A stretch of 64,000 nt of DNA, from the NCBI GenBank assembly GCA_963787715.1, contig CAWBEC010000001.1, forward strand, positions 1,990,449-2,054,448, read 5' to 3'. The DNA is from an uncultured Acidobacteriota bacterium. Lineage in GTDB: Bacteria > Acidobacteriota > Terriglobia > Terriglobales > Acidobacteriaceae. Of this stretch, positions 8,511 through 35,436 are shown piece by piece. Every line of letters starts with the position of its first letter. Positions within the stretch are counted from its first letter, which is position 1. The position numbers and the translations under genes are program-made. Under the pieces are notes generated by a model. The model was not told where the DNA came from. It searched no databases and saw only the letters and a program-made list of their open reading frames with translations.

Positions 8511-8627
8511 CTGGCGTGAGGCCGATTGCATTTCAGTAAGGAAGGCCTACTTGGGATTGCCATTGACCGCGCGCCAGATTACGATGTTCATCGGCCACCC
8601 ACTTTGGCCCGTTGGGAGTCCCTAGCA

Positions 8628-9029
8628 ATGATGTTTGGCAAACTCGGTCTCGTCATGATCGTTGTGCGCGACATGGAGCGCAGCGTCGTATTTTATCGTG
8701 ATGTACTCGGCCTCAAACTTCTCATCCACCAGGACAACTGGAGCCAGTTTGATGCCGGCAACATTATCATCGGGCTTCATCCGGAGGGCGATGAGGTCAA
8801 GGTAAGTCCCACCACTGGCATGAGCATTGGCATTTACGTCGACGACATGGACCACGCCGTCACCGAAATCCGCCGCCGCCTCGCCAAACTCGCTATCGTC
8901 CCACGTGAGGAGCCGTTCGGCCGCTGGGCTCTGCTCTTCGATCCGGATGGATACAGCATCCAGATTATCGAAATGGCGCGCAGCCTTCGCGCTCAGCACA
9001 AACTCCCGCCGGAGCCGAAAGAGTTCTAG
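8628..9029 (+). CDS. VOC/glyoxalase-bleomycin-resistance family protein
   Basis: MMFGKLGLVMIVVRDMERSVVFYRDVLGL... is the typical VOC fold N-terminus. The start was chosen at the ATG after a GGGAG SD; the ORF-track start 8526 is probably too long. Confidence 0.8.
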   Translation: MMFGKLGLVMIVVRDMERSVVFYRDVLGLKLLIHQDNWSQFDAGNIIIGLHPEGDEVKVSPTTGMSIGIYVDDMDHAVTEIRRRLAKLAIVPREEPFGRWALLFDPDGYSIQIIEMARSLRAQHKLPPEPKEF

Positions 9030-9041
9030 TTCGCGCAAAAG

Positions 9042-9068
9042 AAAATCCCTCCGAGGCGGAGGGATTTT
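9042..9068. terminator. Bidirectional hairpin between convergent genes
   Basis: Perfect 12-bp stem AAAATCCCTCCG-agg-CGGAGGGATTTT with A/T runs on both sides. It lies between the VOC stop (9029) and the His-rich peptide stop (9090). Confidence 0.6.
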
Positions 9069-9089
9069 CTTAGTCCGGTAAATCCTAGC

Positions 9090-9215
9090 TTACCGAGCCT
9101 GGCTCGCGTGCGCATGATGATGATGGTGGTGTCTGTGGTGGTGCTTGGCAAAAGCCGGCATCGCTGCGCTCAGCAGCAATACGCCGGCCAGTACGGCGAT
9201 CAACGATTTCTTCAA
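9090..9215 (-). CDS. Small secreted histidine-rich peptide (41 aa)
   Basis: GGAGG, then 7 nt, then TTG (complement of 9213-9215). Translation: (M)KKSLIAVLAGVLLLSAAMPAFA|KHHHRHHHHHHAHASQAR*. This gives a signal peptide with an AFA cleavage motif and a mature 18-mer with 10 His. The ORF track extends it to ATG 9293, which has no SD. Confidence 0.55.
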   Translation of the reverse strand: MKKSLIAVLAGVLLLSAAMPAFAKHHHRHHHHHHAHASQAR

Positions 9216-29458: not shown

Positions 29459-30485
29459 CTACTTTGATGAATCCTTCTCTGCTGAATCTTGTTTAGCGGC
29501 GTGCTGCTTTGCGACGACATTCTGCTTTGCAAGATTCTGACTGGCGACATTCTGCGTAGCAACGTTCTGTGCGGCCCCGAGACCTTTCGACTGCGCTTGC
29601 AACAGCGCCGCGAAATGCTCCAGAGCGTATTGCCAATCATGACCGCCGGGGTAGATATGCGCTTCGTGCGGAATGCCGCGTTCGGTGAGCAGTTCGTCCA
29701 TGGCTACGGTACCCTTGTTGAAGTCGTAGCGATCCTGTGCGCCGCAATCGAAATAGATCGTCATGCGGTGGAGCGCAGGGCGGGAGGCGGCGCGCGCCAG
29801 ATGAAACGCAGAGTTCTTTTCGTAGAACGCAAGATCAGGCGGATCGCCAAAAATTGCGCCCATCAACTTTCGCTGCCATTCCTGAGAGAATTCGCGGGGC
29901 AGATGCTCAATCAGTGCGGGCATGCTGGCGCTGACGGCGGCGAACATCTCCGGATACTTGAAGCCATAGTGCAGCGCGCCAAAGCCGCCCATCGAGATTC
30001 CCATGATTCCACGCTGTGAGCGGGTGGTGCCGATGCGATACTTCTTCTCCATTGCGGGCAAAAATTCATGCAGGAAAAAATCTTCGTAGCGGAACTTGCC
30101 CATCCCTGGAATTGACGTAGAAGGATTGAAAGCCCGCCGGCGCCATGAGCGCGAATTCGCCGATCTTCTTTTCACGCATCAGGCGGTCATACATCGGCCA
30201 GCCGCCCAGGTTCACAAGCGACTGCTCGTTGTCTCCGAGGCCGTGCAGGTAATAGACCACCGGAAAACGGCGGGCAGTGTCCTGCGCGTAGCTGGGAGGC
30301 AGTATCACGCAATAAGGCACCTCGCGATCGAGAATACGGCTCTTGAGAGTGGAACACTCCACCTTGGAATGAGGGGCAGAGGATTGAGCCGTGGCAGGCG
30401 AATCGGCGGCAGGCTGAGCAAGACTCAGCGAATGCAAAACAATAAGACATCCCAGCAGCGCCATCCAGCGGCTTGCAGAATTCAT
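29459..30485 (-). pseudogene. Secreted esterase (putative esterase/CE1-like), one frame break as sequenced
   Basis: The N-terminal part (signal peptide MNSASRWMALLGCLIVLHSLSLA ...YLHGLGDNE...SFYVNSRDG) and the C-terminal part (KFRYEDFFLHEF...GISMGGFGAL...) lie in different frames. The break is at ~30095-30110. Confidence 0.8.
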
Positions 30486-30538: not shown

Positions 30539-31859
30539 TCATTCGTAACGCAGCGCCTGCACGGGGTCAAGCCGGGCGGCGCGCGCTGCCGGATAGATGC
30601 CGGCCACCACGCTGACCAGCACCGCGAAGCCAATGGCTCCGGCGACGAGCCAGAGCGGAACCGTCCAGAGATTTTCGGCAGGCATTTTCATGATTTTGTG
30701 AAGATAAAGGTTGCTGCCGAAGTTGATGGCTCGCCCGATGATCCATCCCAGAGCCACGCCCAGAGCGCCGCCGGTCAATCCCATCGTCGCGGCTTCGGCA
30801 AAGAAAAGCTTCTTCACGTCGGCATCGCTTGCGCCGAGGGCTTTCATGATGCCGATCTCTCGCCGGCGCTCCAATACCGCCATCACGAGCGTATTCACGA
30901 TGGCCAGAAAAGCTACGGCCAGGGCAAGCGAGCCGAAGATTCCCAGGAACATATCCAGCACGGCAAAAAAGCGGCGGATGCTCTTGGTCGCGTCCAGGTA
31001 GGAGTAGGCCGAGTAATTCATCTGCTTCACCGACTCTTCCACCTTCTCCGCGTAGGACGCGGATTTCATGCGCACGGTGAGCATCGAATAGGTGCGCGCA
31101 GCCGGAGGTGGTGCGAACCAGTTGCTGGGTGTCGGCGGGCTGCATCAGGTTCATGGCCTCGGCGGTCTGGGTGGGCAGAAAGACGCGGGCGCGGCTGATC
31201 ATGCGCATGCCGCCGAATGGCTCGCGCATCCAGTAGTCCGACGATGCGGAACTGTTTTTCTTTGCGCTCGATGCTGAAGCTGGTGCTGTCGCCATTCTGG
31301 CGTTCGGCGTAGCGCACGGTCAGAATCTTTCCCAGCACGGATTCCGGATCTTTTTCCAGCTTCTTAGCGAAGTCACGTTGGAGTAGAACTTCATCGGCGA
31401 GGGCGGAGCTGAAGAACCTGCCCTTTACGTTTTCTACCGCGTCTTCTTCGCGCGCGGACTGGGGAGCCCGGCAAGCATGGTGAAGTTGGTTTTGTCGCCG
31501 TAGACCACCTCGGCTCCGGCGCGCACCTCGGGAGCGACTTCCTCGACTCCGGGCAGCGCGGCGATTTTCTTGCGCGCATCGTCATCGAGCACGGGAGCTT
31601 CCTCGGGCTTGATGTCGGCGTTGTCCTCGGCGTTTTCCTGGCGATTGCGAAGGTCCTGCTTGCCGGTGACGAAGACGGTCTGGAAGATTCCAGATTTCAT
31701 GAGCTGGTGATTGGCGAATCCCTGCAGCCCGATGCCGAGCGAGAGCATCGCCACGAGCGAGGCGACGCCGACGGCGATTCCCATGGTGGTGAGGGCATTG
31801 CGCAGGCGGGCATTGCGCATGTTGCGAGCCGCGAGTTCGAACAGATCCTGGCGGTTCAT
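30539..31859 (-). pseudogene. ABC transporter permease (FtsX/MacB-LolE type), three frame breaks as sequenced
   Basis: Four collinear fragments were recovered by my translation: [15 protein letters not shown]...FTMLAGLP / SAREEDAVENVKGRFF...FRIVGLLD / EPFGGMRMISRARVFLP...VRTTSG / RTYSMLTVRMKS...ERRREIGIMKALGAS...LDPVQALRYE. The breaks are at ~31455-31468, ~31222-31236 and ~31092-31103. Confidence 0.85.
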
Positions 31860-32590
31860 CGAAGCGCCTCGACGCCGATTGCCGGAGAGGCGACCAGCTT
31901 TCCATCCGCCATGTGCAGAGACTTGCGCGCATAGCGCGCGGCCAGTGCCGGATCATGCGTGACCATCAGCACGGTCACATTCATCTTTTCATTCAGCTCG
32001 CGCATCAGGGTCATGACCTCGTGACCGTTGCGGCTGTCCAGGTTTCCGGTTGGCTCGTCGGCCAGCAACAGTCCGGGACGATTGGCCAGGGCGCGGGCGA
32101 TTGCGGCCCGCTGCTGCTCGCCGCCGCTGAGCTCGGTGGGTTTGTGGCTGGCGCGATGGGCGAGGCCGACATTGGTGAGCAGCTCAAGCACGCGCTCGCG
32201 GCGCTGGCCGCGAGGGGTTTCGGCGAACCGGAGGGGCAATTCGATGTTGTCGGCCAGGGTCATGGTCGGCACGAGGTTGAAGGATTGAAAGATCATGCCG
32301 ACACTGAGGCGGCGGTAGCGGGCCAGTGCCTCGGAGTCCATTGTGCTCAGGTCTCGTCCGGCGACCATGATGCTGCCCGCGCTGAGATGGTCGAGTCCAG
32401 CGAGAAGATTCAGCAGCGTGGATTTGCCCGAGCCCGAGGGACCCAGCAGGGCGGCGAATTCTCCGCGCTCGATGGTGAAGCTGGCGTCATCGACGGCGCG
32501 CACGATGGTGTCGCCCATTGCGTAGAAGCGGCTGGCGCCGCGTGCTTCAATGGCCGTGGCCGTCTCAGTGCTCACTGTCTCCCCGCTCAT
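31856..32590 (-). CDS. ABC transporter ATP-binding protein (MacB/LolD-like)
   Basis: Walker [10 protein letters not shown], signature LSGGEQQR and Walker B LLLADEPT. The start was chosen at ATG 32590 after an AAGGA SD. There is a 4-nt overlap with the permease. Confidence 0.9.
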
Positions 32591-32765
32591 CGTCGCCCCG
32601 TCCTTCGCAGCCGTTTCTCTCGTACCACACAACGTTGCCGTGACCCTCATTGGACGCAAGCTGAGAGGATACGGTGCAATGATGCTTCCGGTTCTGCTAT
32701 TTCCCGACGATTGCTGCTTTTTGCCGTTGACCTGGGCCGCCCTCTCTGGTTAGGATAACTGCATC

Positions 32766-32844
32766 ATGACATCTCTGCTACATCACCGCCATACATCATC
32801 ACCATACGGCGATTGTGTCGGCGGAGGCGCATGGATCCCTGTAA
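32766..32844 (+). promoter_or_regulatory. Candidate his-operon leader peptide (His-codon run, interrupted by one nt as sequenced)
   Basis: ATG 32766 ... CAT CAC CGC CAT (32781-32792), then a single A (32793), then CAT CAT CAC CAT (32794-32805) ... TAA (32842-32844). Without the A the reading is MTSLLHHRHHHHHTAIVSAEAHGSL*. Confidence 0.5.
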
Positions 32845-32866
32845 AAGGTAATCATCCAAGCACTGG

Positions 32867-32899
32867 CCCGCTGGCGCAATCGAAGCCAGCGGGTTTTTT
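32867..32899 (+). terminator. Strong intrinsic terminator (attenuator candidate) 62 nt upstream of hisI
   Basis: CCCGCTGGC (32867-32875), a 9-nt loop, then GCCAGCGGG (32885-32893) followed by TTTTTT (32894-32899). There is no upstream plus-strand gene for it to terminate. Confidence 0.75.
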
Positions 32900-32961
32900 A
32901 TTGTGACCGTTGCGCCCGATCGCTCCAGGAAAGCCAGTCCGAAGAGGAAAAGGAAAAGACA

Positions 32962-33324
32962 ATGCAGATCGATTTCGAAAAGATGGGGGGACTTGCCCCG
33001 GCGATCGTACAGGATGCCGACAATGGCGAGGTTCTCATGGTGGGCTTCATGAACCAGGAGGCGCTCGAGAAGACGCTTCAGACCGGGTATGTAACCTTCT
33101 ACAGCCGCACCCGCAACAAGCTTTGGACCAAGGGCGAGAGCAGCGGCAACCGTCTGCGCCTCACTTATGCCGCCACCGACTGCGACAACGATACGGTTCT
33201 CTGCAAGGTTCGTGTGGAAGGCGACGGATTGGTCTGCCATGAAGGCACCCGCTCCTGCTTCACCAAGCCGATGAGCTTCACCGCGGCTTCTGACATGAAG
33301 GGCTCGGAGGTCTCCAATGGCTAA
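32962..33324 (+). CDS. hisI: Phosphoribosyl-AMP cyclohydrolase
   Basis: 120-aa ORF with [21 protein letters not shown]...[17 protein letters not shown]...DCDNDT...CH. Confidence 0.9.
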
Positions 33325-34190
33325 GATTCGACTTGGCATTCCGAAGGGCTCGCTGCAGGATGCGACCATCGCATTGTTTGCCGCCGCTGGATTCAAGATC
33401 TACGCCAACGGCCGCTCCTACTTTCCCTCGACCGACGATCCCGAGCTGGAATGCATGTTGATTCGCGCACAGGAGATGGCGCGTTACGTCGAGCACGGCG
33501 TGCTGGATGCCGGTCTCACGGGCCTCGACTGGGTGATCGAAAGCGGACGCCAGGTTCATGCCGTCTGCGACCTGATCTACTCCAAGCAGAGCCGTGGCGG
33601 GGTGAAATGGGTGCTGGCGGTGCCGGAAGACTCGACCCGTGAAACGCGCCGAGGATCTGGCGGGCAAAACGATTGCGACCGAGTTGGTCGAGGTCACGAA
33701 GAATTACTTTGCCGCGAAGAATGTTCCCGTGCAGGTTGATTTCAGCTGGGGCGCGACCGAGGTGAAGCCGCCGATGCTGGCCGACGCCATCGTCGAGGTC
33801 ACCGAGACCGGAAGCTCGTTGCGCGCCAATCGTCTGCGCATTGTCGAGACCGTGCTGGAGTCCAACACGCAGGTGATCGCCAATACGAAGGCCTATGCCG
33901 ACCCATGCAAGCGGCAGAAGATCGACAACATTGCACTGATGTTGCAGGGCGCCATCGCCGCGCAGGGACGGGTTGGACTGATGCTGAACGTGCAGCAGAA
34001 GAATCTGCAGGCCGTGCTCGCGGTGCTGCCCGCACTCAACTCTCCGACGATCTCCGCGCTTAGCGACTCCGAGTGGGTCGCGCTCAACACCATCCTCGAA
34101 GAGACGGTTGTGCGTGATGTGATTCCGCGCCTGAAGGCCGCGGGAGGCACCGGCATCGTCGAGTATCCGCTGAACAAGGTGGTGATGTAA
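33317..34190 (+). pseudogene. hisG: ATP phosphoribosyltransferase (long form), one frame break as sequenced
   Basis: [17 protein letters not shown]...WVLAVPEDS continues in another frame as [17 protein letters not shown]...[12 protein letters not shown]. The break is at ~33635 (TCG-A-CCCGTG). Confidence 0.9.
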
Positions 34191-35436
34191 TGAAACTGCT
34201 CAGTGGCGAGGAGGCGGCGCAAGCGGTCGTCTCCCTCGCTCATCGCTACGCCTCGTTTGATCCCAAGGTGGAGAAGACCGTCGCCGGAATCGTGAGCCGG
34301 GTGCGTTCCGGCGGCGATGCGTCGCTGCTGGAGTACGCGCATAAGTTCGACGGCCTCGCCAAAGGGGCGCCGATGCGCGTCCCGGCGGAGGAGTTGCGGG
34401 CTGCAGTCGGCAAGGTGAGCGCCGAGTTCATTCGCGCCGTTGAGCATCGCGGCGAAAAATATTCGCAATTTTGCCGAGTGGCAACTGCCCCGCCCCTGGA
34501 TTCGCACCATTCAACCGGGGCTGCGCGTAGGTCAGGCGGTTCGCCCTCTGGAGTCGGTGGGCTGCTACGCTCCCGGCGGCCGGTATCCGCTGCCCTCGAC
34601 GGTGCTGATGACGGCGATCCCCGCACAGGTCGCGGGGGTCAAGCGCATTGCAGTAGCCTCGCCGAATCCCGCGCCGGAGACGCTGGCGGCCGCGGCCATC
34701 ATCGGGGTCAAAGAGTTCTACCGGATTGGCGGCGCGCAGGCGATTGCGGCCTTTGCCTACGGCACGCAGAGCATTCCTGCGGTGAATAAGATCGTGGGCC
34801 CCGGCAACATTTACGTGACGCTGGCGAAGAAGCTGGTGGCCTTTGATTGCGGCATCGACTTTCTAGCCGGGCCGACGGAAATTGTCTATTGTGCAAGCGA
34901 GGGCAATCCGGAGTTTATCGCCAGCGATCTGGTGGCACAGGCCGAGCACGATCCCGAGGCGCTCGCAATCTTTGTCACGGCCAGCAGTCGGCTTGCAAAG
35001 GCCGTGATCAAGCAGGCGACGGCGATGGCCAAAGACAATGCCATTGCCAAGCAGTCACTGGTGGCGCGCGGGCGTGGTGCTGGTCGCCAAGAACCGCAAG
35101 CAGGCGATGGAGTGGACCAACGAACTCGGCGGGGAGCACGTTACAGTGCCGTCGGAAGATCTTCAAGACGTAACGTGCGCAGGCTCGATCTTTCTTGGCG
35201 ACCATACGCCACAGTCGCTGGGAGACTATGCGAGCGGCCCGAACCACACTCTGCCCACGGGCAATGTGGCGCGATATCGCGGCGGGTTGAACGTGATCGA
35301 TTTTGTTCGCATCATCACCACTCAGGAGGCAAGCCCGAAGGGGCTGGCCCAGATTGCGCCCACGGTCACGCTGCTGGCGGAGGCCGAGGGATTGAAGGGC
35401 CATGCCGCGAGCGTGCGGGTGAGACTGAAAAAATGA
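34190..35436 (+). pseudogene. hisD: Histidinol dehydrogenase, two frame breaks as sequenced
   Basis: There are three collinear fragments: ...KVSAEFIRAVEH / AAKNIRNFAEWQL...AQAEHDPEA...KQSLVARG / VVLVAKNRKQAMEWTNELGGEHV...GDYASGPNHTLPT...VRVRLKK. The breaks are at ~34448 and ~35068-35073. Confidence 0.9.

Follow-up and report, generated by a model that had tools for sequence, protein, structure and literature searches.

The leader of the Escherichia coli his operon follows a six-segment (A-F) pairing scheme. Both Proteobacteria and Firmicutes are known to have His attenuators (PMC9413887), the Firmicutes candidates coming from the Bacillus cereus group, Peptostreptococcaceae and Erysipelotrichales (Naville & Gautheret 2010, PMC2965389; PMC9413887). 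In Actinobacteria attenuators have been predicted (PMC1262725); the transcription start site (TSS) of the Corynebacterium ilvB leader coincides with the start of the leader (PMC5784534, PMC11857589), and leaderless polycysteine small open reading frames (sORFs) were described in mycobacteria (bioRxiv 10.1101/834739). Full-text literature searches, whose coverage did not extend to Lopatovskaya et al. 2010 (Mol Biol 44:128), yielded no description of a His attenuator in Acidobacteria. In this work we analysed a DNA stretch of 64,000 nucleotides (nt), hereafter the window, from an uncultured bacterium of the family Acidobacteriaceae (phylum Acidobacteriota; assembly GCA_963787715.1, contig CAWBEC010000001.1, positions 1,990,449 to 2,054,448), which carries a candidate His leader in front of hisI. 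With the enterobacterial attenuator (hisL, Rfam family RF00514) this element shares a short open reading frame (ORF) with a His-codon run directly 5' of the his operon, an intrinsic terminator that precedes the first structural gene, terminator and antiterminator pairings that exclude each other and, as we propose, the logic by which stalling at His codons leads to read-through. With the Firmicutes candidates it has in common the lineage-specific leader ORF containing His codons, the terminator/antiterminator hairpins, the recognition by comparative genomics and the lack of a match to RF00514. Like the actinobacterial leaderless attenuators, it appears to consist of an sORF located at or next to the TSS, lacking a Shine-Dalgarno (SD) sequence, and a downstream operon that would be set by the supply of the cognate amino acid. 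Our conclusion, drawn from sequence comparison, is that the family represented by this element is very probably a ribosome-mediated, His-sensing leader-peptide transcription attenuator of the hisIGDCBH... operon.

An initial annotation, made from the window sequence alone, had interpreted the region between a divergent gene and hisI as a ribosome-stalling attenuator. Re-reading of positions 32400-33200 reproduced all the coordinates it had given for the ATG, the His codons, a lone A, the stop codon, the hairpin and the T6 run, and comparison with relatives strongly supports the interpretation. The leader starts with ATG 32766, which is followed by ACA TCT CTG CTA, by CAT CAC CGC CAT (32781-32792), by the lone A (32793) and by CAT CAT CAC CAT (32794-32805) in the +1 frame; this frame ends at TAA 32842-32844. 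The hairpin CCCGCTGGC (32867-32875) / GCCAGCGGG (32885-32893), with the T6 run at 32894-32899, is located 22 nt 3' of the leader stop codon and 62 nt 5' of the ATG of hisI (32962). The hisL-like leader ORF (32766-32844, plus strand) is frameshifted as read; without A32793 it encodes MTSLLHHRHHHHHTAIVSAEAHGSL, and its putative regulatory His-codon run (32781-32805, plus strand; HHRH plus HHHH) has, after this correction, 7 His in 8 codons, the family consensus being HHRHHHHH(H). From the base composition about 0.1 runs of at least four CAY codons are expected in the whole window. The leader feature is far beyond chance, because it recurs 5' of hisI in essentially every related locus. Two other CAY runs, at 35310 and 56724, were set aside; the first lies in an out-of-frame stretch of hisD, the second at the end of a tiny ORF.

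The relatives were collected by a HisI protein scan with one genome per species, which gave 80 hisI loci, 78 of them with upstream DNA. All are from Acidobacteriota, mostly from Terriglobales (including Korobacteraceae), with additional loci from Vicinamibacterales/gp6. In a regular-expression search, 75 of the 78 loci had at least three CAY codons in a row 75-350 nt 5' of hisI. The remaining three (L034, L051 and L074) were recovered with 80, 103 and 16.5 bits by R1, a covariance model built from the leader alignment, which matches the Vicinamibacterales copies at 22-38 bits. Thus a His-codon ORF, a hairpin and a T-run are present 5' of hisI in all 78 Acidobacteriota loci with upstream DNA, and eight contigs from JGI metagenomes carry the same layout. 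The leader ORFs of the relatives are 19-29 codons long, contain 5-8 His codons, typically as HHRHHHHH, and are co-oriented with hisI. Orthologous leader ORFs are intact in 74 of the 76 analysed loci and in all eight metagenome contigs. The length of the His run differs by multiples of three, and the run is out of frame only in the window and in L012. Examples of the encoded peptides are MTSLLHHRHHHHHTAIVSAEAHGTL (L002), MTSLLHHRHHHHHHTAIVSAEARGSL (L008), MQSHLHHRHHHHHAHSVSAGVHLI (L043) and, from Vicinamibacterales, MFAFAHHVHHHSASTLRSCA (L077). The His-rich leader peptide that had been postulated for the window is therefore found as an intact ORF at the same place in the relatives, and the closest metagenome contig (L088, 93% identical over 1.5 kb) encodes exactly the peptide predicted by deleting the lone A. 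In most Terriglobales leaders the His run is interrupted by an Arg codon (32787-32789 in the window, usually CGC), for which two possible roles were considered, RNA pairing (CCGCC with GGCGG) and translation kinetics.

Known RNA families do not account for the element. An Rfam cmscan of 32000-33500 with E up to 10 returned five chance-level matches and neither His_leader (RF00514) nor a T-box; lacking an RF00514 match, the element is regarded as an independent sequence family. This search also bears on the idea that the his operon is under some other control, by a T-box, a metabolite riboswitch or a protein repressor, and that the His codons are incidental. T-boxes and HisR do control his genes in other phyla (PMC9413887), but a leader of only about 135 nt whose ORF has 5-8 His codons, conserved and in frame, in about 86 independent sequences would be hard to reconcile with incidental His codons, and a repressor acting at the promoter, although conceivable, would leave both the ORF and the alternative helices described below unexplained. 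We consider regulation of this kind highly improbable.

The leader contains an intrinsic terminator (32865-32899, plus strand), composed of the stem GGCCCGCUGGC/GCCAGCGGGUU, a 9-nt loop and a U6 tract at 32894-32899. In the window it has a folding energy of -22.2 kcal/mol (z = -5.0), and none of 200 shuffled sequences was as good. A scan with a consensus terminator missed this hairpin; this is no evidence against the terminator because the scan permits loops of 3-8 nt. A terminator lies between the leader ORF and hisI in all loci: in the relatives each leader ORF is followed by a strong hairpin and a T-run (-17 to -30 kcal/mol), the T-run begins about 50-70 nt past the leader stop codon, and the modal gap between the stop codon and the left arm of the terminator is 21 nt. 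The distance from the T-run to hisI is usually 10-80 nt; in L020, L025-L028, L034, L054, L070, L075 and L079 the T-run is 110-300 nt 5' of hisI, and the additional room may hold a further small ORF or a second regulatory element. Pairing was assessed in a structure alignment of 66 Terriglobales leaders (alignment A2), extending from the start codon to the T-run. The terminator (columns 133-143 / 155-165) is paired in 90.8% of the cells versus 27-50% in slid controls. Its five core pairs, CCCGC/GCGGG, are invariant, the flanking pairs switch from UA to CG and from AU to GC, and the number of double-change cells is 37, whereas shuffles give 14 +/- 2.8 and none of 500 reaches the observed value. 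The hairpin identified in the window as a terminator is thus conserved and has compensatory changes in its stem, and the alignment of the regions upstream of hisI as a whole displays a conserved order of His-codon run, stop codon and terminator.

The left arm of the terminator together with the first bases of the loop (32868-32878) is common to a second, alternative helix. Its 5' strand, which we call segment 2 (UGUGUCGGCGG, 32814-32824, plus strand), lies in the V-S-A-E codons of the leader ORF and pairs with CCGCUGGCGCA (32868-32878). The antiterminator pairing that had been suggested for the window is conserved, its length having to be revised from 8 to 11 base pairs (bp; 32814-32824 with 32868-32878). 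The segment 32814-32884 folds with -29.6 kcal/mol (z -2.9), and the helix encloses a small hairpin round the leader stop codon (32832-32858, plus strand; UGGAU.CCU / AGG.....AUCCA). This small hairpin has little stability (-4.8 kcal/mol, z -0.5); in L008 it occurs in a compensatory CUU/AAG version. It may contribute to the positioning of the antiterminator loop or of a pause. Over the 13 aligned pairs, the antiterminator is formed in 85% of the cells versus 29-54% when slid, and there are 34 double-change cells, more than in any of 500 shuffles (20 +/- 3). When the loci were folded one by one, from 8 nt past the end of the His run to the terminator loop, the mean z was -2.18 (76 loci) and 87% were below -1. 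In these 76 loci the segment that pairs with the terminator arm is always 8-25 nt past the His run.

A third pairing, the candidate anti-antiterminator hairpin P1 (32803-32817, plus strand; columns 46-50/60-64), involves CAUA 32803-32806 and UGUG 32814-32817. In general terms P1 joins GYGUG to the last His codon together with the one or two bases that follow it, and it is paired in 82% of the cells. At its pair 49-61, 39 sequences have GC and 15 have AU, and the number of double-change cells is 22 versus 9.9 in shuffles (0 of 500 as high). The helix has only 4-5 bp, and sliding by +2 leaves nearly as much pairing (74%). For the pairing between the His-codon run and segment 2 (the 1:2 pairing) the initial annotation had proposed CCGCC with GGCGG. 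Of the possible 1:2 pairings the short P1 hairpin is the best supported; the CCGCC:GGCGG helix is less well supported, and the N-terminal part of the leader aligns poorly. In the window the minimum free energy (MFE) structure of the 1:2 region pairs UCUCUGCU...ACAU with GUGU.CGGCGGAGG (z -1.5). The MFE state without translation consists of P1 and the terminator.

Segment 2 is nearly invariant in its nucleotides, third codon positions included, a fact that is relevant to whether the peptide itself could be the product that matters. The His-rich ORF might encode a functional small peptide, for example a metal-binding one, or belong to a trans-acting RNA, with the hairpin as its mere terminator and no His switch. 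The C-terminal half, TAIVSAEARGSL, is indeed conserved in close relatives, and there are precedents in the trans-acting attenuator products rnTrpL and peTrpL of Sinorhizobium (PMC6614838, PMC7298713). The conserved C-terminal codons, however, coincide with the RNA strand opposite the terminator arm, and their conservation extends to the third positions, whereas in distant relatives the amino acids after the His run diverge while the pairing potential stays. In two phylum classes, moreover, the element is always directly 5' of hisI and co-oriented with it. A role in trans would add to attenuation and not replace it. That the ORF serves only such a function appears very unlikely to us, even though the window has a second His-run ORF with a terminator (9090-9215, minus strand).

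The region of this second ORF (9041-9215, minus strand) contains a small ORF with a GGAGG SD sequence and a TTG start near 9213, which encodes MKKSLIAVLAGVLLLSAAMPAFA-KHHHRHHHHHHAHASQAR. Its N-terminus is signal-peptide-like, and its His run (9114-9131) resembles the leader consensus HHRHHHHHAH. Downstream of the ORF come the hairpin TCCCTCCG/CGGAGGGA and a T-run, which are shared with a convergent VOC/glyoxalase-like ORF (8526-9029). Model R1 gave its second window match here (9041-9161, minus strand, 27.7 bits, E 1e-5). We rejected 9041-9161 as a second attenuator since no same-strand gene comes after it; the ORF may encode a secreted His-rich peptide or be a relic copy.

It must be noted that several observations weigh against the interpretation of the family, or of its copy in the window, as an attenuator. 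Taken alone, the 9 core pairs of the antiterminator give no more covariation than column shuffles; an excess is seen only once 4 pairs are added on the side of the terminator loop. The covariation of the antiterminator and P1 is largely due to one clade split: columns 49/61/146 change together, being A/U/A in the clade of the window and G/C/G elsewhere. Such a concerted change is what alternative pairing predicts, but may also go back to one event in evolution. Thermodynamically, the 1:2 region is weak (mean z of the family -0.83; for the window the value was given above). Both the terminator and the antiterminator conformers fold, as the initial annotation had envisaged, but over the whole leader the terminator conformer is favoured (-34.8 vs -29.6 kcal/mol). 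The terminator being more stable at equilibrium, the choice for antitermination must be kinetic, as in classical attenuators. Finally, the ORF of the window is frameshifted as read, holds only HHRH and crosses the terminator: with the A included, it extends over 32766-32906 (MTSLLHHRHTSSPYGDC...GFLL), passes through the hairpin and ends at TGA 32904-32906. If the A is real, the window copy would not work as described.

The A at 32793 (plus strand) is, however, a private 1-nt insertion, which is not present in L002, L003 or the other relatives. At this position the window reads CGCCAT-A-CATCATCACCAT, L002 and L003 read CGCCAT-CATCATCACCAT, and most others CGCCAT-CAC-CATCATCACCAT. The A is missing from all 22 close genomes, whose loci make up the close-relative alignment. 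A pattern scan of the JGI metagenomes, which permitted 0-3 bases at this site, found eight contigs, three with 0 bases, five with 3 bases and none with 1 or 2. The window was compared with L002 (92% identical) and L003 (90%), and it differs from both by isolated 1-nt insertions at 30096, 31225, 32793, 33634/5, 34445 and 35070-73; thus at least six private 1-nt insertions across 30.1-35.1 kb break frames that are intact in the relatives. Because of the insertions at 33634/5, 34445 and 35070-73, hisG falls into two ORFs (33317-33739 and 33639-34190), and hisD is broken up into two or more; both genes are intact in L001-L003. The window also has a 1-nt deletion at 31465.

The alternative is that the A is real, and that either the attenuator, hisG and hisD have been inactivated in a decaying his operon, or the attenuator is constitutively open through the extended ORF. 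The sequence as given does contain the A, the as-read ORF does run across the hairpin, and hisG and hisD are broken in the window too. Against this, each frame break is an isolated 1-nt insertion when compared with two independent relatives, and the breaks are distributed over 30.1-35.1 kb; the insertion in the leader is found in 0 of 22 close genomes and 0 of 8 metagenome contigs; and the surroundings, synonymous sites and both RNA helices included, are perfectly conserved, which would not be expected of a decaying locus. Similar sporadic frameshifts are seen in other metagenome-assembled genomes (MAGs) made from long reads (L012, L004, L008). We regard a genuine A as improbable. The simplest reading, since it is one of a series of private frame-breaking 1-nt insertions, is a sequence error, and on the comparison with relatives we hold it with little doubt to be an artefact, as the initial annotation had suspected. 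By the same comparison the whole insertion block looks like sequence errors, not pseudogenisation. Among the other long-read MAGs, L012 (3801-3937) has an extra C inside the leader ORF (CTGCTGCCATCAC), and in L004 and L008 hisG/hisD are fragmented by sporadic frameshifts like those of the window. The strictly conserved frame of the leader is a handy check for insertions and deletions in long-read assemblies, and in the present case it exposes a run of 1-nt insertions.

The attenuator reading of the family also raises the question of where the leader transcript begins. The sole sigma-70-like site in 32300-33300, where 0.3 are expected, is TTGACC-N18-TAGGAT (32727-32756, plus strand), with the -35 hexamer at 32727-32732 and the -10 hexamer at 32751-32756. 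TTGAC is invariant in the 22 close loci, and about 70 of 75 loci have TTGAC[ACT] separated from the -10 box by N17-18. The -10 hexamer belongs to the family TAnnnT, with variants such as TAGGAT, TAGCAT, TACAAT and TATTCT. In 73 of the 75 loci the end of the -10 box is separated from the start codon of the leader by 6-13 nt (mode 8-9), and no conserved purine-rich SD sequence is present between the two across the 75 loci. The initial annotation had noted that the promoter and an SD sequence, AGGA (32752-32755), overlap and could not both be right. The promoter reading stood, TTGAC and TAnnnT being conserved across the phylum. The SD reading was rejected: AGGA is inside the conserved -10 hexamer and is not conserved, relatives having TAGCAT, TACAAT or TATTCT there. 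Because the conserved -10 box ends so close to the AUG, with no conserved SD sequence, the leader ORF is probably leaderless or nearly so, with a predicted 5' untranslated region of about 0-3 nt. Zheng et al. 2011 (PMC3160421) predicted about 13% of the genes to be leaderless in the three Acidobacteria genomes that they analysed.

The downstream gene is hisI (phosphoribosyl-AMP cyclohydrolase; 32962-33324, plus strand; Pfam PRA-CH, E 9.6e-31), the first structural gene of the his operon. It is followed by hisG, hisD, hisC, hisB, hisH and two His_biosynth genes (Pfam), and the upstream neighbour of the leader is a divergent ABC ATPase gene on the minus strand; the Pfam annotation agrees in both respects with the genes that had been assigned to the locus. 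The ATG of hisG (33317) overlaps the end of hisI (stop codon 33322-33324) by 8 nt, an arrangement that suggests translational coupling inside the operon.

Taken together, the elements would fit the following mechanism. We infer from the promoter spacing that transcription starts 0-3 nt before AUG 32766, and that the leader ORF is translated without an SD sequence by a ribosome that would stay close behind the RNA polymerase. When His-tRNA is scarce, the ribosome would stall on the HHRHHHHH codons (32781-32805), melt P1 and free segment 2. Segment 2 begins about 9-12 nt past the last His codon, which places it immediately outside the 3' boundary of a ribosome that has stalled in the run; this geometry is conserved. 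Once free, segment 2 would capture 32868-32878 as soon as it is transcribed, the terminator would be blocked and the RNA polymerase would read into hisI. When His-tRNA is ample, the ribosome would reach the stop codon at 32842-44, which lies in the 42-nt loop of the antiterminator, about 21 nt before the terminator arm. A ribosome at this position should prevent closing of the 2:3 helix, so that the 3:4 terminator could form and transcription would end at the U-tract 32894-32899.

It is instructive to compare this arrangement with the systems mentioned at the outset. In E. coli there are seven consecutive His codons, whereas here a conserved Arg codon breaks the run (HHRHHHHH). The pairing scheme consists of three pairing segments and the small P1 hairpin in place of six segments. 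Unlike in hisL, there is no SD sequence, and the -10 box ends 6-13 nt before the AUG. The first regulated gene is hisI and not hisG, and the host phylum is Acidobacteriota. The Firmicutes candidates differ in that they represent an unrelated sequence family in other phyla, have 3-5 His codons and have not been reported to have a leaderless arrangement. The actinobacterial leaderless attenuators sense Ile/Val/Leu (Corynebacterium ilvB) or Cys (the mycobacterial polycysteine sORFs) and belong to another phylum, and the leaderless start proposed here is a prediction from promoter spacing.

The mechanism is classical and not surprising; what is apparently new is the phylum and the probably leaderless leader ORF. 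We are inclined to think, with reservations, that this His leader is the first recognised amino-acid attenuator family of Acidobacteriota, phylum-wide in the sense that it occurs in Terriglobia and Vicinamibacteria, and one with a leaderless leader mRNA. Acidobacteria are among the most abundant soil bacteria, and their regulatory RNAs are almost unannotated. A phylum-wide element of about 135 nt, for which R1 provides a working covariance model, could enter Rfam-type resources and improve the annotation of his operons in thousands of MAGs. The element also offers a simple handle on transcription-translation coupling, leaderless initiation and intrinsic termination in Acidobacteria. If the proposed mechanism is true, leaderless initiation, tight coupling of transcription and translation, and intrinsic termination would all operate in the poorly studied Acidobacteriota.

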